A DNA stretch of 64,000 bases, taken from IMG/VR virus record IMGVR_UViG_3300024298_000005; one strand, written 5' to 3'. This DNA comes from a virus. Taxonomy: Duplodnaviria; Heunggongvirae; Uroviricota; Caudoviricetes. This document shows, piece by piece, positions 2,956-44,032 of the stretch (position 1 is its first letter; each line of letters starts with the position of its first letter). The position numbers and the translations under genes were made by a program. The notes under the pieces are model-generated. The model saw only the letters and a program-made list of their open reading frames with translations. It searched no databases and was not told the DNA's origin.

Positions 2956-3660
2956 TTATGATCTAATTTTTGCTAAGTTTAATTTTTCAAGAATTTTAAT
3001 ATACAACCAACCTATATCAAACTCAAACCACTTGCGACTCAGTTTAGGGTTAGCGCCATCTCCGTGGTGGTTGTTATGTAATTCTTCACCGCCAATTAAA
3101 AATCCAATAGGAAAAATATTTCTGCTATTGTCCTTGACATCATAATTACGATACCCCCACCAATGTCCTATTCCGTTCACAACTCCTGCTGCAAAGAAAG
3201 GAATCCATATCATTTGAACTCCCCACACTACTACCCCAACAAGACCAAAAAGAACAAGGTCTATGACCAACATTAAAAGAATTCCTGCTAGGGGGTGGGG
3301 AGTATAAACATTGCGTTCAATCCAATCATCTGGAGTACCAATGCCAAGTTTATCGATCATATCTCTGTCTTTACTGGCTATTCCGTAATACCGTACTCCG
3401 TTGAACACTATATTTTTAATTCCAAAAATTAAAGGGCTATGAGGATCACCTTCTTTATCTGCATATTGATGATGTTTTCTATGTATTGCTACCCATTCTT
3501 TTGTGATCATTCCTGTAGTTAACCATAACCAAAAACGCATAAAGTGTTCAACCCAAGGATGAAATTGTACTGCTCGATGTGTTTGACCTCTATGCAAATA
3601 TAGAGTAACACAGGCAATGGTAATTTGTACCATTACCAGAGTATATATAAATTCTATCAT
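2956..3660 (-). CDS. membrane fatty-acid desaturase (delta-9 / DesC-like)
   Basis: His boxes HRxxxH, HRKHHxYxDKxGDPHSP and HNNHH; hydrophobic segments. Confidence 0.8.
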   Translation of the reverse strand: MIEFIYTLVMVQITIACVTLYLHRGQTHRAVQFHPWVEHFMRFWLWLTTGMITKEWVAIHRKHHQYADKEGDPHSPLIFGIKNIVFNGVRYYGIASKDRDMIDKLGIGTPDDWIERNVYTPHPLAGILLMLVIDLVLFGLVGVVVWGVQMIWIPFFAAGVVNGIGHWWGYRNYDVKDNSRNIFPIGFLIGGEELHNNHHGDGANPKLSRKWFEFDIGWLYIKILEKLNLAKIRS

Positions 3661-4244: not shown

Positions 4245-5519
4245 TTAATGAAATTGTTCTTCCTCTGTGCTACCAACTAGTGCTTGAGTAGAAGCATCTG
4301 CTTCGATGGTTGTAGTAACACGATCAAAATATCCTGTTCCTACTTCTCTTTGATGTTTTACTGCCTCAAACCCTAATGCCTGATTTGCAAATTCTTGCTC
4401 TTGCATTTTTACAAAAGCGGTCATTCCTTCTCGGGCATATCCATGTGCTAATTCAAACATACCGTTGTTTAAATTATGGAATCCGGCAAGAGTAATAAAT
4501 TGAAACTTATAACCCATCGCACCTAATTCGCGTTGAAACTTTGCAATGGTTGCATCGTCTAGGTTCTTCTTCCAGTTAAATGATGGCGAGCAGTTGTAGG
4601 CTAACATTTTACCTGGATGGTGTTTGTGTACTTCTTCTGCAAATCTTCTTGCGAAATCAAGATCAGGTTTCCCTGTTTCACACCATACAAGATCGGCGTA
4701 GGGTGCGTAGGCAACGGCTCTTGAGACTGCTTGTTCAAATCCGTTCTTTGTACGATAAAATCCTTCAACGGTTCTTTCGCCAGTAAGGAAAGGACGATCA
4801 TTATCATCAACATCACTAGTGATAAGATCGCCTGCTTCGGCATCAGTACGGGCAATAACCAAAGTAGGCACGCCCATGACATCAGCAGCAAGACGAGCAG
4901 CAACCAATTTGTTAATAGCTTCTCTTGTTGGTACAAGTACTTTTCCTCCCATATGTCCGCATTTTTTTACTGAGGCTAACTGATCTTCAAAATGTACACC
5001 GGCTGCACCGGCTTCGATCATAGCTTTCATTAATTCAAATGCATTTAACACTCCGCCAAACCCAGCTTCGGCATCGGCAATTATTGGAGCATAAAAATCT
5101 TGTTCTTTGCCTTCGCTCCAAGCAATCTGGTCTGCTCTTCGAAATGTATTATTAATCTTACGAACTACTGACGGGACCGAGTTAGCTGGATACAAACTTT
5201 GATCAGGGTACATTTCTCCTGCTAAATTAGCATCGCCTGCTACCTGCCATCCTGATAGATAAATTGCTTTTAATCCTGCTTTAACTTGTTGTAATGCTTG
5301 CATACCTGTTAAGGCACCAAGTGTATTAATATAATCTTCTGTGTGAAGAAGTTTAAATAATTTGTTTGCTTGTTCAACAGCGAACTGGCTCGGATGTATT
5401 TTGCTGCCTTGTAGGCGTACTACATCCTCTGCTGTGTAAGGTCGTTTAATACCGTTCCATCTTGGGTTTGTGGCCCAATCTTGTTGTAGTTCTTGCTGTC
5501 TCTGTGTACGTTGGTCCAT
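4245..5519 (-). CDS. aceA: isocitrate lyase
   Basis: signature KKCGHMGGK; 424 aa, colinear with bacterial ICL. Confidence 0.9.
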
Positions 5520-9961: not shown

Positions 9962-12900
9962 TTATAATATTCTCTCGCCAATGATGTTGTAGCCTGTTGT
10001 GCTACCGTTGTCACTACGCATGAATGTAATGCGATAGATACGACCTGCCGCCTTATCCTGTAGTGTAACGGTAACGGTATCACCAGCGGCATCCATACCG
10101 TGTAGATTATACAATGTAGTCCAGGCAGAAGTAGATACGATTGTGCCAGTGCTACCTGCTTGAGCAACGGCTGCACCATTGATAGCACCCACACCAGTCC
10201 AAGCAAGATTTCTTGACGAACCGTTGCCAATAACCTGTGGGAATATACCCCCTTGATTGCTGATGCGGAAACGCATATTATCCAAGGTAATCTCAGTATC
10301 TATGGCTGCGTTGTATGCCGTTCTTGATACTGACGGTGTTCTCGATGTAAAGGTTGCGTCAGTGTTAAATGTAACACCCGTGCTGCTCATTGTCAGCACA
10401 TTGGTATACGAACTGCTCGAACGGAACTGGAATGATCCTTGAGTTGATCCACCAATGCTAACGTCAAAGTACATATTGGTACTACCATTCTTCAAGTTAC
10501 GAAGAGCGCCTTCGTTAGGCATTTGTAGTGCAACGCCACTGACAGCATTATCTCCAGCAATGAACGCTGTGGTAGCATTAGCTGTTACACTACCGCTGTT
10601 GGCCACTAGATTCTTACCGATGTTTACACTTGATCCAGATCCGCTGTTATATTGAGTTCCAATACTAATATCACTACTATCTAAACTATTGATCCATAAT
10701 GTTCCACTGCTGGTATGAATATGAAGGTTGCCGTCGTCAAAAAGTTGTCCGTGTGTGCCAATATTGAGAGTCTTATTAGTAGCAGAGTTATTAGTTACAC
10801 TTGTTGTTCCTGGAATCGTTAAGACACCAGCACCCGATAAGGTAAGAAGTGTAACTGGGGCGTTGGAACCAGCAAAGCCTAATCCGTCGCCAGCATACCA
10901 ACCAAAGTTGAAGTTAGGGCCTTGAACAGAGGACCATAAGGTATCAGTTGACATACCGATAGCACAATCCATTTTATTCACTGCTATATCTGGATTGAAT
11001 AATATTCTGGTTCCTGTAGATCTATCAGTTACGGTAGGAGCCCCATAGACATTGTTAAAGTCTATTCTACTATAAGTAGAACCGTTAATATAAAGTTGTG
11101 CACCTGTTCCGTGTGTTGCGGTTCCCGTTTTACTACTAGTAATAGTTCCACTAGTTGTTAAACTTGTTAGTGTGCCAACACTGGTTAAACTTGAAGTTAC
11201 TACGGTTGAATTTAATGTTGTGCCGGTTAGTGTGCCCGCGGCCGCTGTAATAGTAGCACTTGCACCTAGTGCGATACTTGTGCCATTAATCGTTACTGAA
11301 CTATTTGCCAACTTAGAATTGGCAATAGATCCTGCCAGCATTGTGTTTGTGACCGTGCCGGTGTCGGTGGTATAAACACCATTGGTTACGGTATCGGCAT
11401 TGCCGGTATAAGCGGTGCTCTGTGTGGTATTATCTGGAAATGTTAAACTACCAGTAGTTCCAAATGTCCAATCTTTTAATGGGGATGTTCCGGTTTCAAT
11501 GATCAATCCAGACGGACTTCTAAACTTATTTGTATTGCTTAGTATTAAACTGCCGGAAGCATCAAATCCTAATACGCCAGTAAAACCACTTGCTGAAATA
11601 CTATTAACGGTAATAGTGCCGCTTCCACCTAAAGAAATGCTTGTGCCATTGACAGAGATACTGCTGTTTGCTAATGCGCTATTTGGAACGGAACTTAGTC
11701 GTGCATTAGGTAATGTTCCGCTGGTAATATTAGAAGCATTTGTTGTATCTGTGGTAGCACTCGTAGCTAACCCAGTAATCTTGCTTGTGGCAATACTGCC
11801 TGCTAACATAGCATTTGTAACCGTGCCGGTATCGCCTGTAGTAATCAGTGTGCCAGTTGTTCCTGGCATTGTAACGGTTGTTGTACCAGCTATTGCACTA
11901 GGCCTTAATTGTGTTGTGCCGCTAGTGCTACCAGCAAATGTAATCCATGCCATTCCGCCAAGTGTAGTTGACGAACTGCCTAATGATATTGATGTAGTAC
12001 CAATGGTAACAGAGCTATTAGACAAACTCGAGTTGGCAATGTTGGTAATAGTATTACTTGAGCCACTAATGTTTTTACTAGTTAAAGTTTCAGCACCTGT
12101 CTTAGTTGCATAACCTGTTAGTGTTGGGCCAGTGATGGTGATATTGCCTTCAGCATCACTGGATGTTGTAATATTATTAGCTCCTATAAACTTAATTGTT
12201 TCTTGACTACTAATAGTTTTTAATGAACTATCATCGGCTGCTACATTAAATGTAAATTGTGCCGGTATTGCTGCGGCGGTAATGTATCCGCTGTCGTTGG
12301 CTAATTGGCTTACATTTGTAGGTATAGTTGGCTTATTAGTTAAGTCTGTATAACTACCACTAAAGATTGTAGGGGTCCCAGTTAACTTGCTGTAGGCTAG
12401 ACTTGTTATCCACGCTGGATTTGCGTATGTGCCTGTGGTATAAACACCGTTGGTCACCGTATCGGCATTGCCGTCAATACTTACACCTGTTAGTGTTTGG
12501 CTAGCACTTGATCTGTTTAGGGCAATACTGGTTGTACCAACATAGGTAGTATCTGCTCTACGTGCTATAGTATTATCAACTGCTACGGTAACTGCTGTGC
12601 TACCATCATAACTTGTTCCGCTGAGTCCTGTGCCAATAGTTAGTGCATTAGGATTTACTGCGGTGATAGTAATAGCAGCAGAACCATCAAAATTTATTCC
12701 GTTGATAGCACGAGCAGTTCCTAATTTAGTTGCTGTTGCGGCATTACCCGAGCTAGTAATATATCCTTGGCTAGTAACATAAGTCTGTGTAGCATAGGTC
12801 AATAGCGTAGACGACAGCGAGCTATTAGTTACATAAGATGTTAGGTTAGGCGGTGTAAATGTAAACACCCCCGAAGTATTGTTGTAACTTAAACTTCCTC

Positions 12901-14116
12901 CACCGCTGGCTGAAGCATTCGATGCTGATAAGTCAGTGAGTCCAATACCACTACCACCACTGCCTACTAGGTCAGCTGCTGGTTGCCATATGCTAAGGCT
13001 GGCATTATATTTTAAGACTTGACCGTCTGTGGCTCCCACGGTAGTCACATCATCTAAACTATTTAAAGTTGTTAATATTGTAGGCTTGCTGGTAACATCG
13101 CTCCAACTAACAGACCCAGTCCAAGCTGTAGTCTGTGTTGTGTTGTCACTGAATGTTAGTTGTTTAGATAGTTTAACTTCTGTTTCACTAAAGCGAACAA
13201 CTTCCTTATTGCCTGCTGATGCATCACCTGCAATAATCTTAGTATAGGTATTGGCAATACTTGTGCCAAGTACTAAGTTACCACCGCCAGCATTACCTCC
13301 TTGCACATACAACCATCCATCACGCTGTCCTACATTATCATATAAACTATTCTCTGCTGTGCCGTCCCAACTTGCTCCGTTAATACCTAAATCAATATAG
13401 TAGTCTGTGTCGCTACCGTTTGGACTTGTTGCTACCCATTCTGTACTTGCGTGATTGCCATCGTTAGTATTTTGAAAGTTGTTCTGTGCGTAGTCGTTAA
13501 CCTGCGCTTGACTTTGGATAACGGTGTTAGGTAGTGCAGCTACACCTGCGGCGCGGCCTGCAAATATAGCAGTGAAACCTTCAGCATCACCTGGTAATAC
13601 TCCTGTGGCATGCAGTTTATTGTTAGTATCAAAGTCAATGGTATCTAGATCAAAGCTACTAGAAGTTACATATCCGCTATCGTTAGTAAAGGAACTAACT
13701 ACGCTAGGAATGCCTGCCGATGTAATGTATCCACGAGTAGTTACATAAGTTTGTGTAGCATAACTAGATAAGGCGCTTGAAGTAATGTATCCGCTATCGT
13801 TAGTAAATGCTGAGACTGCTGTGGGTGCATTTGAAATACTAGCATATGGAACGGTACCCACACTGATAACTTGATTAGCAATGTTAATAGTGGTGCCGTC
13901 AATTTTAACACCACCTTTTACGGTAGTTGTTGCTGTGGGTAATGTATAAGTTCCCCCGCCTGTTCCTCCGCTGACAACGGTTCCCCCTGGTGTTACTCCA
14001 TCGGAAATACGTAAAATACCCGTATCTTCGTCGTAAAATAGTTGTCCGTGAGCACCAACGTAAAATTCTACGTCTTGGCCAGGTATACGCCCAGATTTAA
14101 TCTTTTGAATAGTCAT
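9962..14116 (-). CDS. tail fibre protein (1384 aa, repeat-rich)
   Basis: Gly/Thr/Ser-rich; repeated FTNDSGY(I/V)TS and TYATQTYVT motifs; size typical of long tail fibres. Confidence 0.8.
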   Translation of the reverse strand: MTIQKIKSGRIPGQDVEFYVGAHGQLFYDEDTGILRISDGVTPGGTVVSGGTGGGTYTLPTATTTVKGGVKIDGTTINIANQVISVGTVPYASISNAPTAVSAFTNDSGYITSSALSSYATQTYVTTRGYITSAGIPSVVSSFTNDSGYVTSSSFDLDTIDFDTNNKLHATGVLPGDAEGFTAIFAGRAAGVAALPNTVIQSQAQVNDYAQNNFQNTNDGNHASTEWVATSPNGSDTDYYIDLGINGASWDGTAENSLYDNVGQRDGWLYVQGGNAGGGNLVLGTSIANTYTKIIAGDASAGNKEVVRFSETEVKLSKQLTFSDNTTQTTAWTGSVSWSDVTSKPTILTTLNSLDDVTTVGATDGQVLKYNASLSIWQPAADLVGSGGSGIGLTDLSASNASASGGGSLSYNNTSGVFTFTPPNLTSYVTNSSLSSTLLTYATQTYVTSQGYITSSGNAATATKLGTARAINGINFDGSAAITITAVNPNALTIGTGLSGTSYDGSTAVTVAVDNTIARRADTTYVGTTSIALNRSSASQTLTGVSIDGNADTVTNGVYTTGTYANPAWITSLAYSKLTGTPTIFSGSYTDLTNKPTIPTNVSQLANDSGYITAAAIPAQFTFNVAADDSSLKTISSQETIKFIGANNITTSSDAEGNITITGPTLTGYATKTGAETLTSKNISGSSNTITNIANSSLSNSSVTIGTTSISLGSSSTTLGGMAWITFAGSTSGTTQLRPSAIAGTTTVTMPGTTGTLITTGDTGTVTNAMLAGSIATSKITGLATSATTDTTNASNITSGTLPNARLSSVPNSALANSSISVNGTSISLGGSGTITVNSISASGFTGVLGFDASGSLILSNTNKFRSPSGLIIETGTSPLKDWTFGTTGSLTFPDNTTQSTAYTGNADTVTNGVYTTDTGTVTNTMLAGSIANSKLANSSVTINGTSIALGASATITAAAGTLTGTTLNSTVVTSSLTSVGTLTSLTTSGTITSSKTGTATHGTGAQLYINGSTYSRIDFNNVYGAPTVTDRSTGTRILFNPDIAVNKMDCAIGMSTDTLWSSVQGPNFNFGWYAGDGLGFAGSNAPVTLLTLSGAGVLTIPGTTSVTNNSATNKTLNIGTHGQLFDDGNLHIHTSSGTLWINSLDSSDISIGTQYNSGSGSSVNIGKNLVANSGSVTANATTAFIAGDNAVSGVALQMPNEGALRNLKNGSTNMYFDVSIGGSTQGSFQFRSSSSYTNVLTMSSTGVTFNTDATFTSRTPSVSRTAYNAAIDTEITLDNMRFRISNQGGIFPQVIGNGSSRNLAWTGVGAINGAAVAQAGSTGTIVSTSAWTTLYNLHGMDAAGDTVTVTLQDKAAGRIYRITFMRSDNGSTTGYNIIGERIL

Positions 14117-14398: not shown

Positions 14399-15742
14399 TT
14401 AGTATATTTCGCGCCACTGCCAGCCAACGCCGACGTTTGTGCTCTGTGAGCCTATGTTAGTTGCTACTACAACGTAGATCTCGCTGTCAGTGCTGTCATA
14501 GTTTTGTACAATATAATTCTTTTTGGCTTCGCTGGGAAGGTTACTTGCTGGGGCACCGCCGGCTTTTTGACTACCTTGTGTACTAGCACCAACAAAGCCG
14601 TTGTCCATTTCATCGCCACCTGTGAATGCTGTGCAGGTAGCGTTATATTGTACACCACTATCAGTGTCAACATCTACCCAGGTAGATCCAGTCAATGCGG
14701 CCTGATTAGGCAGTTTGATCAAACGCCATTTGATACTATCGCCATCGCTGAATACATTTAGGTTTCCAGAACGAACTATCATACGGTTGGCATAGGTTTT
14801 GAATGTTGTTTTTAATCTTATGGCCATTATGGTCAATGTTGCACCAGAGGCTATGGTTCTTAGGCTAGGGCTAATCACTGACCAATCCTGTCCTGCTTCT
14901 ACGTAGCCGCCTTCTGACACTACGGTAGAGCAGATCTGATCAAAGTAAGCACCTGTAGTAGTGCCTGTGTTTACAATCTCACAGCGTACAGGCAAGTTTG
15001 GTGTGCTTATGTAGACCGTGGTCAAGTTGTTTGAGTGGTAGAATATGTGGCAGGGTATGTAAGCACCGTTGTGTACAAAACCTACGGTGACAGCACCCAC
15101 ACCTAACCATTGAAACTCTATAAAGGATAGTTGTGTTTTGGTAACATCTATATCAAATGTACTTCCGCCTGTGCCATCACATTTGTCAATGTTCCAGTCG
15201 GCCTGTGTGACACGATTCTCTACAGGAGCACCAGATGTATAAGTTCTTATAACCCAACTCAGAGTACCATCACCTGCTTGTTCAAAAAATATACCATTGT
15301 TATCATCAAAGTATCCTGTGCGCTTTGTAACATTGGCTGTGGCAGCATAGAAGTTAAAACTTGAAAGTATCTGCTGGCTCTTGCCTGGCATATAGTGATG
15401 ATAGAACTTAGTCTGATGAACAACACGACTACTAGAGTTATTACTTGTGGTCAATCTAGCACAGGCTTTATTTGATTGAAAATCTACGGTGCCACCATTT
15501 AATGTATAGTCGATAAAGTTAGGATCTAATCCGTATAAGTGTTTGTAGTCACCTAGAGTAAAAGGTGTACTCATACGTATGCGTCCAAAAGCATCTGTCT
15601 GTCCTACTTTAAGAGTAGTACGAAGCACAGGTTGTCCTAAGGCATTGTACTCCATAGAGTTTTCAATTCTATGAAGATGAGGATCTCTTGGATGAATATA
15701 CGCCGAAGTATTTTCAGGTTGTTCTGAAGGGAAAAGAGCCAT
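14399..15742 (-). CDS. hypothetical protein (probable virion/tail-associated)
   Basis: 447-aa ORF in tail-fibre neighbourhood. Confidence 0.5.
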   Translation of the reverse strand: MALFPSEQPENTSAYIHPRDPHLHRIENSMEYNALGQPVLRTTLKVGQTDAFGRIRMSTPFTLGDYKHLYGLDPNFIDYTLNGGTVDFQSNKACARLTTSNNSSSRVVHQTKFYHHYMPGKSQQILSSFNFYAATANVTKRTGYFDDNNGIFFEQAGDGTLSWVIRTYTSGAPVENRVTQADWNIDKCDGTGGSTFDIDVTKTQLSFIEFQWLGVGAVTVGFVHNGAYIPCHIFYHSNNLTTVYISTPNLPVRCEIVNTGTTTGAYFDQICSTVVSEGGYVEAGQDWSVISPSLRTIASGATLTIMAIRLKTTFKTYANRMIVRSGNLNVFSDGDSIKWRLIKLPNQAALTGSTWVDVDTDSGVQYNATCTAFTGGDEMDNGFVGASTQGSQKAGGAPASNLPSEAKKNYIVQNYDSTDSEIYVVVATNIGSQSTNVGVGWQWREIY

Positions 15743-15751
15743 ATTAAATCT

Positions 15752-16024
15752 TTAGGTTTTCCACGGACGACCGGCAACTAAGCCGCCAGTGTTAGGATTA
15801 TCGTCTGCGCCCGGAACATTGCCGTTATATGTGTCTGGCAATAATGTTGTGTCTAAAACATTGTTTGGTCTATAATATGGTTTAGAACTATCAAGAGAAC
15901 CAGTTATTGTTCCATCAGTCGCAACTACTTTGCCTTGACGTTTTGCTTCAGCAATTTGTAATTTAAGAAGCTGTGATTGTTCTTTAGTATGTAATAATCT
16001 ATCTGAAATACCGTTGGCTGACAT
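15752..16024 (-). CDS. hypothetical protein
   Basis: 90-aa ORF. Confidence 0.45.
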   Translation of the reverse strand: MSANGISDRLLHTKEQSQLLKLQIAEAKRQGKVVATDGTITGSLDSSKPYYRPNNVLDTTLLPDTYNGNVPGADDNPNTGGLVAGRPWKT

Positions 16025-16326
16025 TATTTTGCTCCATAGACCGTTCCTGGATACATTGCAACACTATCACTTCTAATATCTGCAGGATGTTTAGTTCCGT
16101 TTAAACTATCAGCACCAGCATCTACGGTCACAGAGTCAATGCTGGCATATTCTTCTTTCGGAGTATTTGAATATTCGGTTGGCTGACCTTGATCTGCTAG
16201 GTCTACAATTTGTTTAAATCTTTTTATATCTGTATCTTTGTATCCAGAAGGATCTGGGTCGTTTTGTTGTTGATCAACACCATCTATGATATCTAGCATG
16301 CCTCTTATTAATTCTGTAATTTTCAT
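16024..16326 (-). CDS. hypothetical acidic protein
   Basis: 100-aa ORF, ATGA overlap. Confidence 0.45.
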   Translation of the reverse strand: MKITELIRGMLDIIDGVDQQQNDPDPSGYKDTDIKRFKQIVDLADQGQPTEYSNTPKEEYASIDSVTVDAGADSLNGTKHPADIRSDSVAMYPGTVYGAK

Positions 16327-16556
16327 TGTACACCGCCCAATTGCCTAATGCGATTAATTTCTTCTTTAGCAGGATCGCCCTGTTTGTTCATAAAAGCTAC
16401 AATTTTGTCATAGTCTGCCATTGTAACTGGACCGTCTTGTGATAATTTAATAACTGCTTCTGCTATATCATGTAGATCTGCATCTTGCTTAACTTCTTCC
16501 CGAGCAAGCTCTAGCAAACGTATAAACAACGGCACATCTAATTGCACTATATCCAT
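16323..16556 (-). CDS. hypothetical protein
   Basis: 77-aa ORF. Confidence 0.45.
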   Translation of the reverse strand: MDIVQLDVPLFIRLLELAREEVKQDADLHDIAEAVIKLSQDGPVTMADYDKIVAFMNKQGDPAKEEINRIRQLGGVQ

Positions 16557-16598
16557 TTTATAATCTCCGATCTAATATTTAGTGTTAAATAGCATACT

Positions 16599-17801
16599 AT
16601 GATAAACAAAGAACCTTTTAAAAAACTATTGCAGGATCTTAAAGCATCAGGAAAATATCGTGTTTTTAATGATATTGTTAGAGAAGCTGGAAAATTTCCT
16701 ACAGCTATTTGGTACGGGCCTTATAACATTAAGAACATAGTAAACTGGTGTTCAAACGATTATTTGGGCATGGGCCAGCATAAAGTTGTGCTAGATGCTA
16801 TGCACACCGCTCTAGATCACACAGGATCTGGTTCAGGAGGCACTCGCAATATTGGCGGGTCTAGTCACTATCATAAAGCCTTAGAACACGAGCTTGCCAC
16901 TCTGCATAATAAACAGAGCAGTTTATTATTCAGCTCTGCATATGTGGCCAACGAATGGACTCTTATTGCTCTAAGCAAGATTGTGCCTAATATTCATTTT
17001 ATCAGCGATAGTAAAAATCACAATAGTTTAATTATAGGAATGAGTCATAGTCGAGCTCCTAAACAAATATTTGAACACAATAACCTAGAAGATTTAGAAA
17101 GCAAATTAGTTGCTGCTACACTTGCTGGCCATACTCCTTGTATTGTTTTTGAAAGTGTATATTCTATGGATGGTGATGTTGGAGACATAAGAGGAATTTG
17201 TAATCTAGCAGACAAATACAATGCTATCACTTACATTGACGAAGTACATGCGGTAGGGCTATACGGTGAGCGCGGCGCTGGTAAATTAGAAGAGTTAGGG
17301 TTCCAGGACCGAGTTGACATAGTTAACGGAACGCTTGGTAAAGCGTATGGTGTCCAAGGTGGATATATTGCTGCCGATGCAGATGTAATTGATGCTATCC
17401 GATCAGTGGCTGCAGGGTTCATTTTTACTACGTCTATGAGCCCTGTTACCTGTGCCGGTGCGTTGGCTGCAATCAAATACTTAAAAGAGCATAACGAAGT
17501 TCGAGAGAAACATCAAGAACGTGCTCGTAAATTAAGACATAGATTAAAGAAAGCAGGAATTCCTGTTATGGAATGTTCCACCACTCATATTATTCCTGTG
17601 CTTGTTGGAGATGCTAAGAAGTGTAAAGCAATGAGCGATATGCTGTTAAATGATCACAACATCTATGTTCAACCAATTAACTATCCTACGGTTGATGTAG
17701 GTACTGAAAGATTACGATTTGCACCCACTCCATATCACGACGACGGAATGATTGAAGATTTAGTCATTGCTCTTACTGCGGTGTTTAATAAATTTGATTA
17801 G
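16599..17801 (+). CDS. hemA: 5-aminolevulinate synthase (Shemin pathway, PLP-dependent)
   Basis: NYLGMGQHK ... [10 protein letters not shown] ... TLGKAYG PLP-lysine motif; colinear with ALAS. Confidence 0.85.
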
Positions 17802-18654
17802 TCTTTAAGTAATTAAAATATTCTTTAATACCTTGATCTATATTAAAGAATCCTTTAACATCAACACCAGCATCCTCTAAAAACTGGACTGATGCACAGG
17901 TGTATTCTTGATATTGTTCTTTAAGATCATTTGGCATGTCAATAGATATTTTTGTGCCATATCCAATCTCTTGTAAGCAAAGATCTGCAACTCGATCAAA
18001 ACTTACAGCATTACCAGTACCAAGGTCGTAGAGACCTTCTTTATAATTGTTAATAAAATGATGTACGGTTTTAGCCACATCTTCGACATATATAAAATCT
18101 CTTAGATAATTTTCTGAGTTGTTGAATATTTTTAAAATTAAATTGTTTTCTAATTGACGGTACCAATGAAAGGGCGTACTAGCCATACGACCTTTGTGAT
18201 ATTCATTTGGTCCGTAGACGTTGAATAATCGAAGTATTACACCATTAGTTATTTCTTGTTCGCAGGTAAGTTTACTAAAAGCATAGTGGTTAACAGGACC
18301 GTTTCCGTTGCCGTATACTGCTGCGCTTGACATGAATATAAACTTTTTTCCGTAATGCTTACAAAGGTCGTGCCATCTTCTTGTACTAACAATATTGGAT
18401 TCGTAGATGCTAGACCAATCTCTTTCTAGTGTACTTGCATTTGCTCCGCAATGGATAACACAATCGAACGCAGATAGATTGTCTATAATTTCTTTAGTAG
18501 AGTATAGTCCTTTATATTTTTTGCCAATTAAATTTTTATATTGATCTCCATAAGGCATATCATCAAAGAGGTAAACATCTTCGATTCCTTGTTTATTAAG
18601 ATAACCTAAAATATAACTTCCAATAAAGCCTGCTGCTCCTGTGAGTATAATCAT
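17785..18654 (-). CDS. hldD: ADP-L-glycero-D-manno-heptose 6-epimerase
   Basis: [13 protein letters not shown] Rossmann start, ...SSAAVYG; close to E. coli HldD over N-terminal 120 aa; start set at internal Met giving ATGA overlap. Confidence 0.75.
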
Positions 18655-19427
18655 AGTATTTCCTCTAATGTTGGTGCATAACATCCAACGTGCTGTACCG
18701 TAATTGATGATGCATTGTTGGCAAACTCTAATGCTTGCATCATATTTTCTGTTTCTAAAAATTTGTAGGTCAATGCAGCTAAGAAAGTATCGCCTGCTCC
18801 TGTTACATCAACCAATGGAACTTTTTTAGGGGTTAGTTTATTATCCAAATATTGAACCCCATCTTCGCCAAGAGTAACAATTAACCATTTGCTGTTTGGT
18901 AATGTAATAGCCTTGCTTTTTTCTAATTCATTTATTTTTACATAACAGCCTTCGAACCTAACAAGGTCTGTTTTTTTAGTGTCAATGAAAATAGGTCCTT
19001 TGTATTCTTTTCTAATTTCTTCAACAAGTTCGTAGGTAATGGTTCCTTTGTTATAATCGCTGATTACTATTGCATCATAAAAATTAGGAATAGGAGTATC
19101 AAACCTAATAGGATCACTTTTCTTATCTCTATCAATTCGAACTATCTGTTGTTTACTGCGTCGATCGATAAGTCTTTCTTTTTCGCTAGTTTCCCCGTAG
19201 AGGAAATTTACATTGCACCCAAGTGCTTCTAAATTTTCTCTAACGTTGTCGGCCATACCCGCTTTGTAAGTATGTCCATGTGGATTGAACACAGGTATTG
19301 GAGCTTCAGGACTAATCCTATTCACACTTCCGTATGTGTAAATGTCTGTACCTTTATCCCCTATCAATAATATCCTGTATTGTTTTGGAAGTTGAGTGAT
19401 TTGTTCGTTCATAAAATAATATTTCAT
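18651..19427 (-). CDS. PfkB-family sugar kinase (HldE kinase-domain-like, heptose-7-P kinase candidate)
   Basis: PfkB signature DVTGAGDTFLAAL; GGGAGA RBS before Met at 19427. Confidence 0.65.
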   Translation of the reverse strand: MKYYFMNEQITQLPKQYRILLIGDKGTDIYTYGSVNRISPEAPIPVFNPHGHTYKAGMADNVRENLEALGCNVNFLYGETSEKERLIDRRSKQQIVRIDRDKKSDPIRFDTPIPNFYDAIVISDYNKGTITYELVEEIRKEYKGPIFIDTKKTDLVRFEGCYVKINELEKSKAITLPNSKWLIVTLGEDGVQYLDNKLTPKKVPLVDVTGAGDTFLAALTYKFLETENMMQALEFANNASSITVQHVGCYAPTLEEIL

Positions 19428-19752
19428 TGCAGTATTCTTCTCCCACAATCGATCTATTGCGGTAGTCACTGCCTTTTACCATAGTTACAGGCCTAATGCT
19501 TTTAATTATTGAGATAAGTTCTTCTTCAGTATTGAAAATCTTAACATCATCTACAGATTTTAAATTCTGTAACATAAGCATACGATCCCATTGATCGTTA
19601 ATAGGGCGGCCCGGCCCTTTAAGAAAATTTACACGAGCATCGCTGTCAATACAAACTAGCAAACGATCGCCAACAGACTTTGCATAGTTTAATAATTCTA
19701 TGTGTCCTCTATGCAATATATCAAAAGTTCCATTGACTATTATTTGTTTCAT
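19354..19752 (-). CDS. cytidylyltransferase-like nucleotidyltransferase (HldE domain-II-like, heptose-1-P adenylyltransferase candidate)
   Basis: GTFDILHRGH (H/T-x-G-H) motif. Confidence 0.7.
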   Translation of the reverse strand: MKQIIVNGTFDILHRGHIELLNYAKSVGDRLLVCIDSDARVNFLKGPGRPINDQWDRMLMLQNLKSVDDVKIFNTEEELISIIKSIRPVTMVKGSDYRNRSIVGEEYCNEILFYERTNHSTSKTIQDIIDRG

Positions 19753-20372
19753 GGTAACGAGTTAACAAAACTTGCAAGATCGTCAAATATAATAGTTCGA
19801 CGCTTTAATTCTCTGTAAGTGAATTTGTTTAATTCTTTTTCTGTTTCAAGGCCATAACCTGTTCTAACTAACACAGGTTTTGAACCCATCTTAACTGCTG
19901 CTTTAAGATCTTTAATCTTATCGCCTACATAATAACCTTGATTAAATTTAATATCTGGAATTTCTTTTTCACATCTCTTAAACATTCCAGTATTTGGTTT
20001 TGCAAACGGATCATCTTTACGTGAGCTAGCAGAATAATATATTGCATCGATACTAGAACATCCTGCCTTGCCAAACAAATCTAGCATATGTGTGTGCAAT
20101 GTATCTACTTGTTCTTGTGTATAGATACCCTTTTCAATTCCCCCTTGATCTGTAATGATTACAATCTTATAACCTTTACGTCTAAGTTCAGCAACTGCAT
20201 CAACGCTGCCAGGAATTGGATCAAAATCTTCAACACGATAACAATAGGTACCTAGATCGCGATTAATAACTCCGTCACGATCTAAGCCTATTACACACTT
20301 TGTTCTAAACTCGCCACCAGTCCAGGTAATCTTAGGCTGGTTGTTCTGTGGCTGGTTGTTCTGTTGTTGCAC
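19749..20372 (-). CDS. gmhB: D,D-heptose 1,7-bisphosphate phosphatase (HAD-IIIA)
   Basis: GLDRDGVIN motif and HAD fold spacing. Confidence 0.7.
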   Translation of the reverse strand: MQQQNNQPQNNQPKITWTGGEFRTKCVIGLDRDGVINRDLGTYCYRVEDFDPIPGSVDAVAELRRKGYKIVIITDQGGIEKGIYTQEQVDTLHTHMLDLFGKAGCSSIDAIYYSASSRKDDPFAKPNTGMFKRCEKEIPDIKFNQGYYVGDKIKDLKAAVKMGSKPVLVRTGYGLETEKELNKFTYRELKRRTIIFDDLASFVNSLP

Positions 20373-20733
20373 TTTGGCTGTCTCCGGGAATGATTCGATA
20401 GTTATCCTCTACACTATCTGCTGTACTAACTTCAAATATCATTGAGTTTGGTACAAGAGCAATAAGTTGATGAGGCATCATAGGAGGGTTATGCCAAGTA
20501 TCACCTTCATTTAAGAATTTTTCGTGATAGGTTGCTGTTTTTGTGTCGCACCAAACCAATTTAAATTTTCCTGCGTTTACAAACCATGTTTCGTCTTTTT
20601 CTTTATGAAAGTGCATACTAAACTTAGCACCTGCTTTTTCAAAGACCATAATCTTACCGCAGTACTTGTCGTTGGTTGCCCAAATAATTTCGCAACCCCA
20701 TCCTTTATCTACTTTACCTTCTTGTCTTGTCAT
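20332..20733 (-). CDS. cupin-fold protein (sugar isomerase/epimerase-like)
   Basis: small beta-barrel-type sequence with His-rich motifs; within sugar-nucleotide cluster. Confidence 0.4.
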   Translation of the reverse strand: MTRQEGKVDKGWGCEIIWATNDKYCGKIMVFEKAGAKFSMHFHKEKDETWFVNAGKFKLVWCDTKTATYHEKFLNEGDTWHNPPMMPHQLIALVPNSMIFEVSTADSVEDNYRIIPGDSQSATTEQPATEQPA

Positions 20734-21320
20734 TATCGTTTCTCGATGATTTTGTCAACGAGTCCATATTCAAGAGCTTCTTGCGCTGACATAAACTTAT
20801 CACGTTCCATGTCGCGAGCAAACTCTTCGTAGGTCTTACCTTTTGAATTATGCTTAACATAAATCTCAGTAAGATTCTTTTTCATTTTTAAAATCTCTTC
20901 TGCTTGAATTTGAATATCTGTAGCTTGACCACGGGCGCCGCCGCTGGGTTGATGAATCATGTGACGAGCGTTTGGCAACATATAACGTTTACCTTCTGCT
21001 CCTGCTTGTGCTAACAAACTTCCCATTGAACAAGCCTGTCCCATAACGTAGGTAGCCACAGGGCATTTAATAAACTGCATTGTGTCATAAATGCTCATGC
21101 CTGCTGTAACAACACCACCTGGGCTATTAATAAACAGACTAATTTCTTTATCTGGATTTTCGCTTTCTAAAAATAATAGTTGTGCAACTACAATATTTGC
21201 CATGTGGTCTTCAACTTCACCTGTTAACATGACAATACGCTCTTTAAGTAATCTGCTATAGATATCGTATGCACGTTCGCCTTTTGATGTAGACTCAACT
21301 ACCATTGGTACTAAACTCAT
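20733..21320 (-). CDS. clpP: ATP-dependent Clp protease proteolytic subunit
   Basis: Ser (GQACSMGS), His (HQPSGG), Asp triad spacing; 195 aa. Confidence 0.85.
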
Positions 21321-22256
21321 TTATGCTTCCTTAATGTTAGAAATATTTTTTAGTTTAAGCTCTTCCATTAGGTCCGTCAACCATCGTAATACCTTTACAT
21401 TTGGTTTATAACCCAGTTCGGCTAATCTTGTAATATCTGCTTCTGTATTTGCTACTGCTCCAACACGTGGCGGAACAACTATTTGTCTATGACTAATAAT
21501 GTCTGCCAATTGTTTGATACTTACAGATTGGCCTGATCCTAAATTGAATACGTCTCCGTGTTCACCGTACTCTAGAACAATCATAAGACCTTTGATAACA
21601 TCACTAACATGAACAAAGTCTCTGCGTTGATCACCACCGCCGTGTAACAACAACGGTTGATTGGTTTCCCAGGCAGAAATAAACTTTGGAATCACTAATG
21701 CGTTTTTGCCAAAGTCCATAAAGTCTCCGTACATGGTAAAAGGTCTTATTATTATTAATTCTGTATCCCCAACAAGACTCTGCACGTGAAGTGCCCATTC
21801 TGCAGACATCTTGCTCACAGCATAAGGATTGGTTGGCATCAATTGGCTATCTTCTCGTTGTTTGATTGTACCGTTGTTTCCATACACTGAGCTAGAACTT
21901 ATATAAACAAATTTCCTTACACCCATAGTTTGGCATAAACTAAAAAATTTATGTGTTGCTGTTATGTTTACATTATAGTATTCAGCGTACTCATTCCAAC
22001 TAGGATCAATCCTAGATCGATTGGCCATATGAACAACAACATCAACTTCTTTAAGATGTTCTTTTAAAACTGGAATATCTTCTGTTATATCGCAATAATG
22101 TATTTGATTATTGTGCGACCACCCTTCTCGAACACTTTGGTCCCATAAGAACGGAGGTTTATCAATCAATACCGTTTCGTCAAACATTTGTTTTAAGAAT
22201 GGGGTAGCATTGCGTCCAAGAAACCCATTTGCTCCAGTGATCATTAATTTGCTCAT
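21321..22256 (-). CDS. NAD-dependent sugar epimerase/dehydratase (SDR family)
   Basis: ITGANGFLG Rossmann motif, YAVSK catalytic YxxxK. Confidence 0.75.
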   Translation of the reverse strand: MSKLMITGANGFLGRNATPFLKQMFDETVLIDKPPFLWDQSVREGWSHNNQIHYCDITEDIPVLKEHLKEVDVVVHMANRSRIDPSWNEYAEYYNVNITATHKFFSLCQTMGVRKFVYISSSSVYGNNGTIKQREDSQLMPTNPYAVSKMSAEWALHVQSLVGDTELIIIRPFTMYGDFMDFGKNALVIPKFISAWETNQPLLLHGGGDQRRDFVHVSDVIKGLMIVLEYGEHGDVFNLGSGQSVSIKQLADIISHRQIVVPPRVGAVANTEADITRLAELGYKPNVKVLRWLTDLMEELKLKNISNIKEA

Positions 22257-22331: not shown

Positions 22332-22871
22332 TTGTTAACCAAAAGTAAAAAAATGAGTACCCTACTATTAAATGCAGACATGCAACCAATTAGCCTACTT
22401 CCGCTATCTTGTGTAGATTGGCAGGAAGCCATTCGCTATATGGTTTTGGACAAGGCCGAAGTCCTTGAGTGGTATGACGACTGGATTGTTCATTCAGCTC
22501 GTTGGGAAACTAAAGTTCCTGCTGTACTAATGCTCAAGGAATATCAAAAGCCTAAGAACACAATGCGCTTATCTAAGCGTAATGTATTCTTGCGAGACCA
22601 ATATACTTGCCAATACTGCGGTACAGAAGTAACAGATCAAACTGCTACTTTGGACCATGTACATCCTGTGTCAAAAGGAGGTAAGACCACTTGGGAAAAC
22701 TCTACAACTGCATGTAAGCCTTGCAACTATAAAAAGGCTGCTCATGTAGGTAAGATGAAACCAAAATTGTCTCCATACAAACCCCACTTTTGGGATCTAG
22801 TTGAAAAGAGAAAACTAAAAGGTTTTCACTTACATCATCCAAGCTGGGCATCTTATTTGGGTGTTGAATGA
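22332..22871 (+). CDS. HNH endonuclease
   Basis: CxxC ... LDHVHPVSKGG ... N ... CxxCN HNH motif. Confidence 0.7.
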   Translation: MLTKSKKMSTLLLNADMQPISLLPLSCVDWQEAIRYMVLDKAEVLEWYDDWIVHSARWETKVPAVLMLKEYQKPKNTMRLSKRNVFLRDQYTCQYCGTEVTDQTATLDHVHPVSKGGKTTWENSTTACKPCNYKKAAHVGKMKPKLSPYKPHFWDLVEKRKLKGFHLHHPSWASYLGVE

Positions 22872-23458
22872 CTCCGATCAGTCTATCTCCAGCGGTTGTA
22901 TGGAAAGGCCATTATTCTGGTGACCTAAGTGAGTTGGTTAAACGAGCTTCTCATAAACTCAAAACTGGATCACAACTTAATAACAGAGTAGAACGGGACG
23001 GAGGGATAAGTTCTTCCTCCGATCCCGATGCGCCTCACTACTGGGAAGAATCAAACGATTTTCTTGTTTGGGCGGGACCAATGATAGAAAAAGTTTGGGC
23101 TGAATGGCAACTTCCAAAATGTGACTTATCAATAAGCTCTAGTTGGGTTAACCTTCATCCTTTTAACGGATGGACTGACGAACACACTCACGGTAGTGTT
23201 CCGTTGGTCTGCGTTTTATATGTTGAACAACCTGCCAACGGTGGAAACTTAGAAATTTTTGATCCAATGTTTCATATTTGGAGCGGAAGTCTTAGAGTTG
23301 AGCTTCCTTGGAAAGAAGTTGAAGTCCAAACGGGAGATGTATTAATGTTCCCAGGTTGGATGCTACATAAAACTCAAAAAAACAACTCAAACGATGATCG
23401 GATCGTTATGAGTATAAACATTAGCCCAAATCCTCACACATTCCATAGAACATTTTAG
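22868..23458 (+). CDS. 2OG-Fe(II) oxygenase superfamily protein (TIGR02466-like)
   Basis: C-terminal LMFPGWMLHK motif shared with paralogs at 29352, 33094, 55829. Confidence 0.6.
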   Translation: MTPISLSPAVVWKGHYSGDLSELVKRASHKLKTGSQLNNRVERDGGISSSSDPDAPHYWEESNDFLVWAGPMIEKVWAEWQLPKCDLSISSSWVNLHPFNGWTDEHTHGSVPLVCVLYVEQPANGGNLEIFDPMFHIWSGSLRVELPWKEVEVQTGDVLMFPGWMLHKTQKNNSNDDRIVMSINISPNPHTFHRTF

Positions 23459-26887: not shown

Positions 26888-27682
26888 ATGAAGCGTATTG
26901 CAACTCTTTCTATCCTTGCCGCGGCTATTTTGGCCACTGGCTGTACTCGTATTGAAACTGGTGAAGTTGGTCTGCGGGTCGGCTTTGACAAACAAGTTAA
27001 GAATGATGAGCTCTTGCCTGGCAGTTTTAATCAAACCATTATTGGAGATGTTCTTACATTCCCGGTTAAGGATGTTAACGTCAAACTGGATGACATGACT
27101 CCTATTGCCAAAGATAACAGCACAATGAAAGACTTTGATGCTATTGTTATCTATAGTTTGAACCAAGCACAGGTAGCAGAACTTTACAATACAAAAAGCA
27201 AAGCATTTCACGTTAAACATGACGGTGATACTTATCTAATGTTTAATTACATTTACAATGCTGCTCGTAATGCTATCTACAAAGAAGCACGTAAGTATGA
27301 AGCATTGGACATGGCGGACAATCGTCAGCAAATGGAAACTGCTATTAAAGAACAAATCCAAAAAACTCTTGTAGAAGAAAAATTGGATGGTTCAATTACT
27401 ATTACACAAGTTCTTGTTCGTAATGTTGTGCCAGCAGACTCCGTTGTAGAATCAGCCAATGCTCTTGTTCGTGCAAAGAATGAGTTCAAACAAAAAGAAG
27501 TTGAAGTGGCTACTGCTAAGAAAGAAGCAGAGCGTATGCAAGCTCTGAGCAATCAAGGCGCCCAATCAATTGCTTACATGAACGCACAGGCCGCACTTAA
27601 TATCTCAGAAGGTATTAAGAACGGTAAGGTACAGACAATTGTTGTTCCTAGCAACATGACTGGTTTGATGATTAACAAGTAA
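26888..27682 (+). CDS. SPFH/band-7 (HflK/C-, prohibitin-like) lipoprotein
   Basis: signal peptide with lipobox LATGC; SPFH-like core; C-terminal coiled-coil. Confidence 0.6.
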   Translation: MKRIATLSILAAAILATGCTRIETGEVGLRVGFDKQVKNDELLPGSFNQTIIGDVLTFPVKDVNVKLDDMTPIAKDNSTMKDFDAIVIYSLNQAQVAELYNTKSKAFHVKHDGDTYLMFNYIYNAARNAIYKEARKYEALDMADNRQQMETAIKEQIQKTLVEEKLDGSITITQVLVRNVVPADSVVESANALVRAKNEFKQKEVEVATAKKEAERMQALSNQGAQSIAYMNAQAALNISEGIKNGKVQTIVVPSNMTGLMINK

Positions 27683-28200: not shown

Positions 28201-28314
28201 TGGTTATTGAAATCGTGATGTGGGGATTCCTATCAGCTTTTGGCTGGTGGGGAGCCAACCATTATGTAATTGAACCTTACTTTCCTCCACCTATCGAAAA
28301 AAAGAAAGAAGACA

Positions 28315-28989
28315 ATGGGATCGATTCTAAGTGATATTTTTGATGATTGGAGAAACGATGCGTCTTATTACAAGCCGCAACATAAAAACTACAATCAGCC
28401 TGTAAAGATTATTAGGGTTCCGTGTTGTCACAATGACGATCAAGAACCTGTGTCTATCATTTGTCCAGACATGAAAAACGGGCCATGGATCGCCGGTGGT
28501 GCATGTCTACGCTGGTATCAAGGTCTTCCTGTAGGAGATGCTGATATTGATGTGTTCTGTTCATCTCCTGAACAGGCACAACAAATTATCGATGAGATTA
28601 AAAGCTACGGTCGTTATTCTACAAAATTTGAAAGTGAAAATGCCACCACGTTAAGCTATCATAGTAAAGATAGTAAGTATTGGACTTTACAGATCATTAA
28701 GCGTAGGTATTTTAAAAACTTACAAGAAGTTATTGATAATTTTGATATTAGTGTTTGTCAAATTGGCACAGGAGGTCAAGAGTGGTTAATGGGTAAAACT
28801 ACTGCTCGAGATATTCGTGAGAAAAATCTAAGAATGAACATGCCATTGCAACCAGATGCTGCTAAACGTCTTGCAAAATATTGGACTTATGGTTATCGTC
28901 CTGTAGACGGTTTGCTTGATTCTATTCGAAATAATCCTGTAGCAAAACAAGAATTCCAAGTAGATGGAGATTACGAAAATGCGTTCTGA
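28315..28989 (+). CDS. hypothetical protein (possible nucleotidyltransferase fold)
   Basis: AGGA...VGDADID resembles hG[GS]-x-DhD NTase motif; start moved to ATG 28315. Confidence 0.4.
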   Translation: MGSILSDIFDDWRNDASYYKPQHKNYNQPVKIIRVPCCHNDDQEPVSIICPDMKNGPWIAGGACLRWYQGLPVGDADIDVFCSSPEQAQQIIDEIKSYGRYSTKFESENATTLSYHSKDSKYWTLQIIKRRYFKNLQEVIDNFDISVCQIGTGGQEWLMGKTTARDIREKNLRMNMPLQPDAAKRLAKYWTYGYRPVDGLLDSIRNNPVAKQEFQVDGDYENAF

Positions 28990-29359
28990 ACTAAGTTGGA
29001 GTGTACTAGATCCAAAACCGGTTCTATTGTATATTAGAAATTCTGACGAATATATATGTTATTGGAACGGCATTGCTATGACACATACTATGGCTATGAA
29101 TATGGCTTTAGAACCGTTTGGTATCTTTGCTACTCCAGAAATGAAAACATCTATGGAACAGGACTATCGAAGAATCTATTATGCAGGAGGTTTCGATACT
29201 CGTGCTTGGGATTTTAAAGTTTCAGAAAGCCCAATATATCCATATGTAAAACGTTTAATGGCTGAACATATTAAAAAGACCATTGCTGAACAAAAACGTC
29301 CTATTGCAGAAGTATTAGGATGGTTTGATTATAGTAGGGCTCGAACAGATAATGATTGA
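28979..29359 (+). CDS. hypothetical protein
   Basis: GGAGA RBS before internal Met. Confidence 0.4.
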   Translation: MRSELSWSVLDPKPVLLYIRNSDEYICYWNGIAMTHTMAMNMALEPFGIFATPEMKTSMEQDYRRIYYAGGFDTRAWDFKVSESPIYPYVKRLMAEHIKKTIAEQKRPIAEVLGWFDYSRARTDND

Positions 29360-29948
29360 AGATATATTTGCTATTTCAATATATAGAACAAAATATAAAG
29401 ATAACATTGTTGAATTACAAAACAATGTTATCCCCCTTCTTGAGCCTGTCTTTGCTGAAACAATTAAAGACAATCAAGGTTCAATGAGGAACGGTGGATT
29501 ATGCTCTTATAATGTTGTACGCAATTTACAATCAATGCCCGAACTACAAGGGTTATTAGAATTTTTAACAGAACATGTTAATGCATATTGGCAACATTTA
29601 AATTATTCAGGAAAACCTGCTATTGTTGAGATGTGGGCCAATCGATATGCTCCAGGGTCATTTATCGATACGCACAATCATAGTCCAGTTCCGTTAACAT
29701 CAAGTTTTTATCTTAAGAAAAATAAAGATTCGGGCAATCTTGTTTTTGAACACCCAAATGAAGTAATACTTAAACATCAACCATATTCATTTAACAATAG
29801 AAGTTCATATCACCAGTTGTTTGATTACGAAGTGCCTGTTGAAGAAGGAGACCTTGTTATCTTTCCTTCATATCTAAGACACAAGACTATGCCCAATCAA
29901 TCTACAGAAGATAGAATTATTATTGGTACAAACATATTCGCTGTATGA
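29352..29948 (+). CDS. 2OG-Fe(II) oxygenase superfamily protein (TIGR02466-like)
   Basis: HNH..., C-terminal VIFPSYLRHKT motif; paralog of 22868, 33094, 55829. Confidence 0.65.
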   Translation: MIEDIFAISIYRTKYKDNIVELQNNVIPLLEPVFAETIKDNQGSMRNGGLCSYNVVRNLQSMPELQGLLEFLTEHVNAYWQHLNYSGKPAIVEMWANRYAPGSFIDTHNHSPVPLTSSFYLKKNKDSGNLVFEHPNEVILKHQPYSFNNRSSYHQLFDYEVPVEEGDLVIFPSYLRHKTMPNQSTEDRIIIGTNIFAV

Positions 29949-30874: not shown

Positions 30875-31413
30875 TTACTCTAAAGCAATTTATGGAAACT
30901 TGTAACTATCGTATTACTGAAGGTAGTGAATACGGTTGGCAATGTTTTGGGCGTGATGCTTATCGCTTAGATTCTTGGAATGGCGATATTGAAGGACACA
31001 CAATTACCATTGTGTTTGATACCAAAACACAGGTTGTCTATGAAGTAGAAGCATTTGACTATAAACGTGAACGTGCTTATCGTATGATCAATCTTGCGTT
31101 CAAACCTGCCTTTGATGCAGAAGTTGAGGATCGAGAAATCCTTGATATGGCTTGGGAAAAAGATGACGGTACACCCGTTAAGTATGTTGACATTGATGTA
31201 GATGAAGACTTTCTTGAAAAGGCCTATGCTATCTGCAACGATCAAGAATATGATACTCGTGTACAGGTTCAAGTAGAGTTCTCAGACGAAGAACTTTTAA
31301 ATTACATGAAGATTGCTCACGAACGCGATATTACTTTTAATCAACTTGTAGAACAAGCATTAAAGGCTGCAATCGATCTTAATGCTTCTATTAAGAATCT
31401 TAGATTAGACTAA
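30871..31413 (+). CDS. hypothetical protein
   Basis: 180-aa ORF. Confidence 0.5.
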   Translation: MITLKQFMETCNYRITEGSEYGWQCFGRDAYRLDSWNGDIEGHTITIVFDTKTQVVYEVEAFDYKRERAYRMINLAFKPAFDAEVEDREILDMAWEKDDGTPVKYVDIDVDEDFLEKAYAICNDQEYDTRVQVQVEFSDEELLNYMKIAHERDITFNQLVEQALKAAIDLNASIKNLRLD

Positions 31414-37438: not shown

Positions 37439-37515
37439 CACGCATTAGCTCAGTTGGATAGAGCAACAGCCTTCTAAGCTGTGGGTCAGGGGTTCGAATC
37501 CCTTATGCGTGGCCA
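37439..37515 (+). tRNA. tRNA-Arg (anticodon UCU), CCA encoded
   Basis: cloverleaf folded by hand: acceptor CACGCAT/ATGCGTG, D GCTC/GAGC, anticodon loop CUUCUAA, T-loop TTCGAAT. Confidence 0.8.
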
Positions 37516-37519
37516 GTTA

Positions 37520-37597
<78 letters not shown>

Positions 37598-41537: not shown

Positions 41538-41617
41538 GGTTGCTATTTTACAACAAGAATGCTACTATATTGACACGCTGTGGAACACAGCCATATAACA
41601 TAAAGGAAAACACAGAC

Positions 41618-43875: not shown

Positions 43876-43935
43876 GACCTCGCCCATCGCCGGGCGGGGG
43901 CTCACCCAGGGCTTCCGCCCACCTTTTGGAGTGCC

Positions 43936-44008: not shown

Positions 44009-44032
44009 TACACATACTAAGGAGAGCGACTA

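Follow-up and report, generated by a model that had tools for sequence, protein, structure and literature searches.

A predicted 5-aminolevulinate synthase gene stably carried by a lineage of large uncultivated phages

Background

A stretch of 64,000 nucleotides of tailed-phage DNA (Caudoviricetes; IMG/VR record IMGVR_UViG_3300024298_000005), referred to here in its full length as the window, carries an open reading frame resembling 5-aminolevulinate synthase (ALAS), and so raises three questions: whether the gene belongs to the phage, whether its product is a true ALAS or a related enzyme, and whether it reveals the bacterium in which the phage replicates. ALAS was listed among the porphyrin genes of large freshwater phages by Chen et al. 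in 2020 (bioRxiv 10.1101/2020.02.13.942896), and the viral gene was named valaS by Wegner et al. in 2024, who described it in marine and freshwater phage contigs, where it occurs alone or together with hemO and a bilin reductase (PMC11480375). The catalytic residues of the viral enzyme (vAlaS) are conserved, and His342 and Cys400 are often lost; the vAlaS of phage CB_2 complements an Escherichia coli ALA auxotroph and converts glycine plus succinyl-CoA to ALA, and its K250A mutant, altered at the equivalent of K248 in the window protein, is inactive (PMC11480375). The preliminary description of the window had called the gene an unusual auxiliary metabolic gene; phage auxiliary metabolic gene remains an apt designation, but unusual does not, since phage ALAS was noted in 2020 and characterised in 2024.

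Results and discussion

The valaS gene and its immediate surroundings

The gene and the features in and beside it are as follows.

16599..17801, plus strand: valaS, 5-aminolevulinate synthase gene, an ATG-to-stop open reading frame of 400 aa plus stop
16827..16856, plus strand: glycine-rich motif, residues 77-86, containing T82, N84 and I85
17340..17342, plus strand: codon of the PLP Schiff-base lysine K248, placed by residue mapping, with the same number in Rhodobacter capsulatus ALAS
17619..17624, plus strand: K341-C342, K341 being the equivalent of His342 of R. capsulatus ALAS and C342 adjoining it
16557..16598, no strand: AT-rich divergent intergenic spacer of 42 bp upstream of the valaS start
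17785..17801: convergent 3' overlap of 17 nt between the end of valaS and a heptose-epimerase-like gene (17785-18684, minus strand)

We take T82, N84 and I85 to be the counterparts of R. capsulatus T83, N85 and I86 at the succinyl-CoA site, and His342 of the R. capsulatus enzyme to be its haem-regulatory residue. The motif TLGKAYG, which contains the PLP lysine K248, occupies residues 245-251. In quoting sequence the preliminary description reproduced this motif and the glycine-rich one exactly, and mis-transcribed a third, NYLGMGQHK, from which a D had been dropped. The C-terminus of the protein (...FNKFD) lacks a Cys.

Both neighbours of valaS lie on the opposite strand. The 42-bp spacer and the upstream scan yielded neither a sigma-70-like site on the plus strand nor an obvious Shine-Dalgarno sequence, and a promoter and terminator scan around the gene returned fewer sites than shuffled sequence did. 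The 17-nt overlap with the epimerase-like gene recurs in independent assemblies.

A conserved slot in a phage lineage

The setting of valaS is that of a phage genome. A virion structural protein (phrog_1645, 374 bits) is encoded at 14399-15742, about 0.9 kb upstream, its best match among isolates being that of cyanomyophage S-RIM32 (53%); elsewhere the window encodes a DnaB-like helicase, a primase, an ATP-dependent ligase, a nuclease, a ClpP-family protease and an HNH endonuclease, and the helicase is nearest to those of the jumbo phages PA5oct, Atu_ph07 and Phosso (49-53%). The identical ALAS in identical gene order is found in several independent ENA and JGI assemblies, and contigs with the identical protein are up to 130 kb long. 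Relatives of valaS occur on 98 IMG/VR contigs, 80 of which were retrieved (76-88% identical), and in these the gene is framed by two sets of markers.

16024..16556, minus strand: upstream slot markers, a pair of short conserved phage genes (100 aa and 77 aa), with homologs in 47 and 35, respectively, of the 80 valaS loci
20332..21320, minus strand: downstream slot markers, a cupin and a ClpP-family protease identified by Pfam, conserved beside valaS

Where present, homologs of the upstream genes adjoin valaS, about 0.7-1.3 kb upstream of it. In many relatives valaS is followed directly by the cupin and ClpP genes, and an ADP-heptose-like cassette intervenes in a subset only, so that 17785-20372 is a variable insert. 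This cassette, on the minus strand, encodes an HldD-like epimerase, HldE kinase and adenylyltransferase domains as separate proteins and a GmhB phosphatase, all of which score under their NCBIfam cutoffs; a second SDR epimerase/dehydratase gene comes after ClpP (21321-22256, minus strand).

When contigs were retrieved by ClpP instead, valaS stood beside it in 38 of the 40 that had ClpP identity of at least 80% and enough flank, and more distant ClpP-bearing contigs (74-79% ClpP identity) mostly lacked valaS. Pairwise dN/dS against the window gene, taken only from pairs with unsaturated dS, is 0.03-0.1, and median pN/pS is 0.17. valaS is thus a gene that large uncultivated phages of one lineage inherit stably and maintain under selection.

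PHROGs has no family matching the valaS protein; megablast of positions 10-30 kb of the window against about 50,000 GenBank phage records gave zero matches, and tblastn of the ALAS against the same records gave only KBL/BioF-type proteins at 35% identity or less, many of them in contaminated records. The absence of a match among these records indicates a phage without a close sequenced isolate.

The HNH endonuclease gene (22332-22871, plus strand) has homologs at varying distance from valaS and in either orientation, which suggests a mobile homing-type element. Encoded between structural genes is a 1384-aa Ser/Thr/Gly-rich repeat protein (9962-14116, minus strand), presumably a tail fibre; neither a PHROG match nor a homolog among the 80 valaS loci was found for it, which is consistent with a rapidly evolving host-recognition protein.

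A viral clade apart from cellular ALAS

In a tree built by neighbour joining only, 59 distinct viral sequences form a single monophyletic clade, apart from 81 cellular ones and set off by a long stem. Members of the viral clade are at least 70% identical to one another, whereas any viral sequence and any cellular one share 60% or less among the matches listed. Among the matches listed from a pattern scan of GTDB species representatives, nearly all are alphaproteobacterial ALAS, and they share 51-58% identity with the window protein. An exhaustive HMMER search over 1.84 billion cluster representatives found one at 78%, other full-length matches being at about 53% or less, though clustering at 50% could hide alphaproteobacterial sequences within the viral cluster; many of the matches at about 53% or less are long eukaryote-type ALAS. 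The window protein has the fold of the alphaproteobacterial ALAS/HemA enzymes of known structure (2BWN, 7X98), is 52-54% identical to them from end to end and has each of their PLP, glycine and succinyl-CoA residues; it differs from them in being virus-encoded, in belonging to a separate monophyletic clade and in lacking both His342 and a C-terminal Cys. Monophyly and the low viral-to-cellular identity (60% or less) argue that the capture of ALAS from an alphaproteobacterium-like donor is, as far as sequence comparison can date it, old, and that the gene does not reflect the present host.

If the gene were instead bacterial, whether as misassembled or misbinned host DNA or as a very recent passenger, it would report an alphaproteobacterial host; and bacterial ALAS is indeed largely alphaproteobacterial, as are nearly all of the best cellular relatives listed. 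We regard this as very unlikely, for the gene order has been assembled independently many times and valaS keeps its place across dozens of viral contigs; a monophyletic clade on a long stem, with the gap between 60% (matches listed) and 70% identity just described, is not what a recent passenger would leave, nor is a representative search in which one cluster representative reaches 78% and no other full-length match goes beyond about 53%. The isocitrate lyase of the window, moreover, points to Burkholderiales, and published valaS phages have been predicted on both alpha- and gammaproteobacteria.

Enzyme family and active site

The window protein is, on the evidence of family models, conserved residues and predicted fold, a genuine full-length 5-aminolevulinate synthase with an intact active site, as the preliminary description had proposed for 16599-17801. 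The 400-aa reading frame scores 571.6 bits (E = 8e-172) against TIGR01821, the NCBIfam equivalog model for ALAS, whose curated cutoff is 338.55, a match much too strong to be fortuitous. The models for KBL (314 bits, cutoff 460) and BioF (304 bits, cutoff 426) fall short of their thresholds, and the protein is also under the NCBIfam cutoffs of the SPT and CqsA-type synthase models; Pfam assigns only the generic Aminotran_1_2 domain. The best sequence matches in the PDB, at about 1e-130, are 7x98 (E = 6e-130) and 2bwn (E = 1e-128), identified in the structure search as Rhodopseudomonas palustris HemA and R. capsulatus ALAS, followed by human and yeast ALAS; KBL first appears at E = 4e-63, with 217 bits against 437 bits for ALAS.

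Residue mapping against R. capsulatus ALAS (54% identity) shows R21, N54, T83, N85, I86, H142, K156, E185, S189, D214, H217, T245, K248, T278, T365 and R374 all kept, and S277 replaced by Thr, which is also the residue in 73 of the 81 cellular ALAS. The set of PLP contacts (H142, S189, D214, H217, T245, K248 and T278) is complete and invariant in the 59 distinct viral sequences; the PLP lysine K248 is unvarying in these and in the 81 cellular sequences, and the T and N of the glycine-rich motif are likewise invariant in viral and cellular sequences. The substrate residues are all conserved, namely N54 and R374 for glycine and R21, T83, N85 and T365 for succinyl-CoA, roles that we take from the 2BWN/2BWO/2BWP structures. 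The active-site lysine and the substrate-binding arginines, which had been singled out for checking, are in place.

An AlphaFold model of the protein (pLDDT 73.8, pTM 0.76, with low confidence for residues 21-88) was computed from a shallow alignment, whose members all share 81% identity or more with the window protein, and was used for fold ranking only. Foldseek against the PDB placed ALAS in all of the top 30 positions (TM about 0.73), with KBL, AONS and SPT ranking behind. Family scores, PDB ranking and structural ranking thus all favour ALAS, and the best homologs are ALAS rather than KBL or BioF.

Two other readings of the product can be weighed against these results. Some Streptomyces antibiotic clusters encode cyclising ALAS-like enzymes of secondary metabolism for C5N-unit synthesis. 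These are near enough to ALAS that sequence models separate the two poorly, and it is this general closeness, rather than any result of the analysis, that lends them some plausibility here. That the window gene encodes such an enzyme is nevertheless a reading to which we give even less credence than to a bacterial origin: the surrounding phage structural, sugar-nucleotide and ClpP genes include no partner acyl-CoA ligase or amide synthase; the nearest cellular relatives listed are almost all alphaproteobacterial housekeeping-type ALAS; and a member of the viral clade rescues haem auxotrophy (PMC11480375). Least probable of all, to the point of being negligible, is that another alpha-oxoamine synthase (KBL, AONS or SPT) has been misread as ALAS, for although the Aminotran_1_2 fold is shared, the KBL and BioF scores (314 and 304 bits) are significant and the matches in GenBank phage records are solely of KBL/BioF type at 35% identity or less, the KBL, BioF and SPT models remain under their curated cutoffs with ALAS far over its own, PDB ALAS outscores KBL by 437 to 217 bits, the ALAS-specific succinyl-CoA and glycine residues are kept, structural neighbours put ALAS first, and a homolog from the clade makes ALA (PMC11480375). 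What KBL, BioF (AONS) and SPT have in common with the window protein is the PLP fold-type-I superfamily and Claisen-type chemistry; they differ in identity (27-35% by tblastn or structure-based alignment), in family models that stay under their cutoffs, and in using other acyl-CoA and amino-acid substrates than ALAS.

Relation to published viral AlaS

By its sequence and setting the window gene is a further member of the freshwater huge-phage vAlaS subgroup, which is already known. Compared across its N-terminal 109 aa, the window protein shares 82-84% identity with the vAlaS of the GROS21-1 phages, 64% with a marine vAlaS and 54% with the Caulobacter enzyme; the marine sequence is the Marinovum MED640 record, flagged by the authors as a misannotated phage genome (PMC11480375). 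The GROS21-1 phages, from Lake Grosse Fuchskuhle, have genomes of 179-374 kb and 38-42% GC that contain hemO and a bilin reductase but no cassette (PMC11480375). They share with the window protein an N-terminal stretch (MINKxPF...GKYRVFNDI...), and the comparison extends to GC content (38-42%, against 36-48% in the window), to genome size (179-374 kb; one window gene is found on a contig longer than 200 kb) and to the placement of valaS outside a three-gene cassette. The window protein is not identical to any of the published GROS21-1-type sequences compared, and the hemO and bilin reductase genes of GROS21-1 are not in the 64-kb window.

The vAlaS of CB_2, a Crystal Bog phage of 527 kb described by Chen et al. 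in 2020, belongs to the same family and viral clade, keeps the catalytic lysine and is about 69% identical to the window protein across the 99 residues at the N-terminus; the phage carries pmoC and has Methylocystis as its predicted host, whereas no pmoC was seen in the window. Marine pelagiphage-type valaS, found in hemO-pcyX-valaS cassettes, encodes the same enzyme within the same broad viral clade, but the contigs are of 31-38% GC and often have the three genes together, while the window is without hemO or pcyX.

The loss of haem-regulatory residues reported for vAlaS recurs here. The position equivalent to His342 is K, R or Q, never H, in the 59 distinct viral sequences (K341 in the window), and without the His342/Cys400 pair the valaS product might conceivably escape feedback inhibition by haem. 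His is found at this position in just 17 of the 81 cellular ALAS, however, so its loss is neither virus-specific nor diagnostic, and the feedback argument is weak.

Proposed role in tetrapyrrole synthesis

The window gene is an apparently functional auxiliary metabolic gene that would serve tetrapyrrole precursor supply. By homology vAlaS would be a homodimeric fold-type-I PLP enzyme, in which glycine would form an external aldimine on the PLP held by K248; this aldimine would then condense with succinyl-CoA and decarboxylate to give 5-aminolevulinate, CoA and CO2. An infected cell would in this way receive a one-enzyme Shemin entry into tetrapyrrole synthesis, host enzymes would turn ALA into haem and other tetrapyrroles, and the phage hemO and bilin reductase that close relatives have in their complete genomes could process haem further. 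That an active vAlaS supplies ALA during infection is a reading that we consider highly probable.

In the window itself valaS stands alone, and a cassette of the three genes (hemO-pcyA/X-valaS) was not found in its 64 kb. Haem oxygenase (PF01126), bilin reductase (PF05996), CobS and BchE had no Pfam match among the non-overlapping window ORFs of at least 55 aa; the Pfam scans passed over a few overlapping or apparently spurious ORFs, and the tail-fibre, helicase, primase and nuclease ORFs were compared with PHROGs only.

Isocitrate lyase and the host question

The preliminary description had read an alphaproteobacterial host from three features, the ALAS, a GcrA-like domain and an isocitrate lyase (ICL). 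The first does not bear this weight, as the viral clade is monophyletic, the window protein is at most 58% identical to cellular ALAS among the matches listed, and a gammaproteobacterial host has been predicted as well: the predictions for valaS phages name Methylocystis (alpha) and Methyloparacoccus (gamma) (PMC11480375; bioRxiv 10.1101/2020.02.13.942896). The second could not be found. GcrA (PF07750) had no Pfam match among the non-overlapping ORFs of at least 55 aa scanned in the window, and three regular-expression searches of the six reading frames for motifs from the GcrA N-terminus gave nothing meaningful; the only plausible source of the claim is a generic winged-helix HTH_39 ORF (41534-41893, plus strand) without PF07750 signal.

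The third feature is real as a gene, although its affinities do not support an alphaproteobacterial host. The ICL gene (4245-5519, minus strand) scores 778 bits against NF011645 (cutoff 562), and its first PDB match, 3i4e, at 732 bits stands well above other ICL chains. Its nearest cellular relatives in PLSDB are from Burkholderiales (Ralstonia 78%, Mycetohabitans 75-76%; 75-78% overall), then from Enterobacterales (69-71%), against 63-68% for Alphaproteobacteria (Rhizobium, Sinorhizobium and Azospirillum 66-68%, Sphingomonas 63.5%), which counts against an alphaproteobacterial host and hints that the host may be a betaproteobacterium, one that would use the C5 route to ALA.

The window gave no sign of a malate synthase. 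ICL and valaS lie about 11 kb apart there, and 4-9 kb apart in 12 of the 80 related viral loci. The products of ICL, succinate and glyoxylate, are each one host step from an ALAS substrate, succinyl-CoA and glycine, respectively. It can be imagined that the phage installs the Shemin route in a native C5-route host, possibly a freshwater betaproteobacterium, and perhaps feeds it by its own ICL; we think this improbable, and the evidence for a coupling of ICL and valaS is their co-location. Such a coupling, if true, would explain the freshwater huge phages that have ICL but no malate synthase. A 2025 preprint reports ICL in 98 huge phages, and ICL-only huge phages of fresh water (bioRxiv 10.1101/2025.02.27.640493).

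Other features of the window

Between about 34000 and 52000 an 18-kb block of mostly small plus-strand ORFs of unknown function has a GC content of 46-49%, up from about 36-40%. An assembly chimera was considered as the cause of this shift and rejected, the junction being reproduced in three independent assemblies. The block holds tRNA-Arg(TCT) and tRNA-Met(CAT) genes (37439-37597), a DksA/TraR zinc-finger ORF, and a MoxR-like AAA+ ATPase (42790-43875, plus strand, phrog_1297) beside a DUF2201 metallopeptidase/VWA protein (44033-45241, plus strand, phrog_1314). This AAA+/VWA pair (42790-45241) was rejected as CobS/CobT-like, the annotation given to such pairs in cyanophages, as NCBIfam gave no match; nor is the ATPase a CobS ortholog, its PHROGs score being 339 bits for a generic ATPase against 37 bits for 'porphyrin biosynthesis'.

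The window has an unusually high number of paralogous 2OG-Fe(II) oxygenase genes (PF13759/PF13640), which are dispersed along it, with at least five copies (22868-23458, 29325-29948, 33094-33753, 33672-34283 and 55829-56392) and a possible sixth (59804-60424). Host-like genes comprise a fatty-acid desaturase (2956-3660, minus strand), an SPFH/Band-7 protein (26888-27682, plus strand), an AlgH-like DUF179 protein (31405-31962, minus strand), a Bax1-I/YccA-family membrane protein (55152-55832, plus strand), a carbamoyltransferase (60417-61361, minus strand) and a weak malonyl-CoA decarboxylase-like match (53723-54157, minus strand). The counterpart of ORF 28270-28989 (plus strand) on related contigs (16158-16832 of contig L167) has a precomputed Pfam assignment to PF26128 (Gad2, an anti-Gabija family), whereas our Pfam scan of the window ORF itself gave no match.

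Conclusions

For annotation the locus holds a lesson: an anciently captured metabolic gene reflects the lineage of its donor and not the present host. The window adds one well-supported member to the freshwater huge-phage vAlaS subgroup, and places it in a fixed slot, under strong purifying selection, in many uncultivated phages. A phage-borne ALAS implies that, in the aquatic bacteria they infect, viruses may act on the first committed step in the making of haem, B12 and bilins, a viral manipulation of the entry to tetrapyrrole synthesis that was already argued for, and tested experimentally, in 2024 (PMC11480375).
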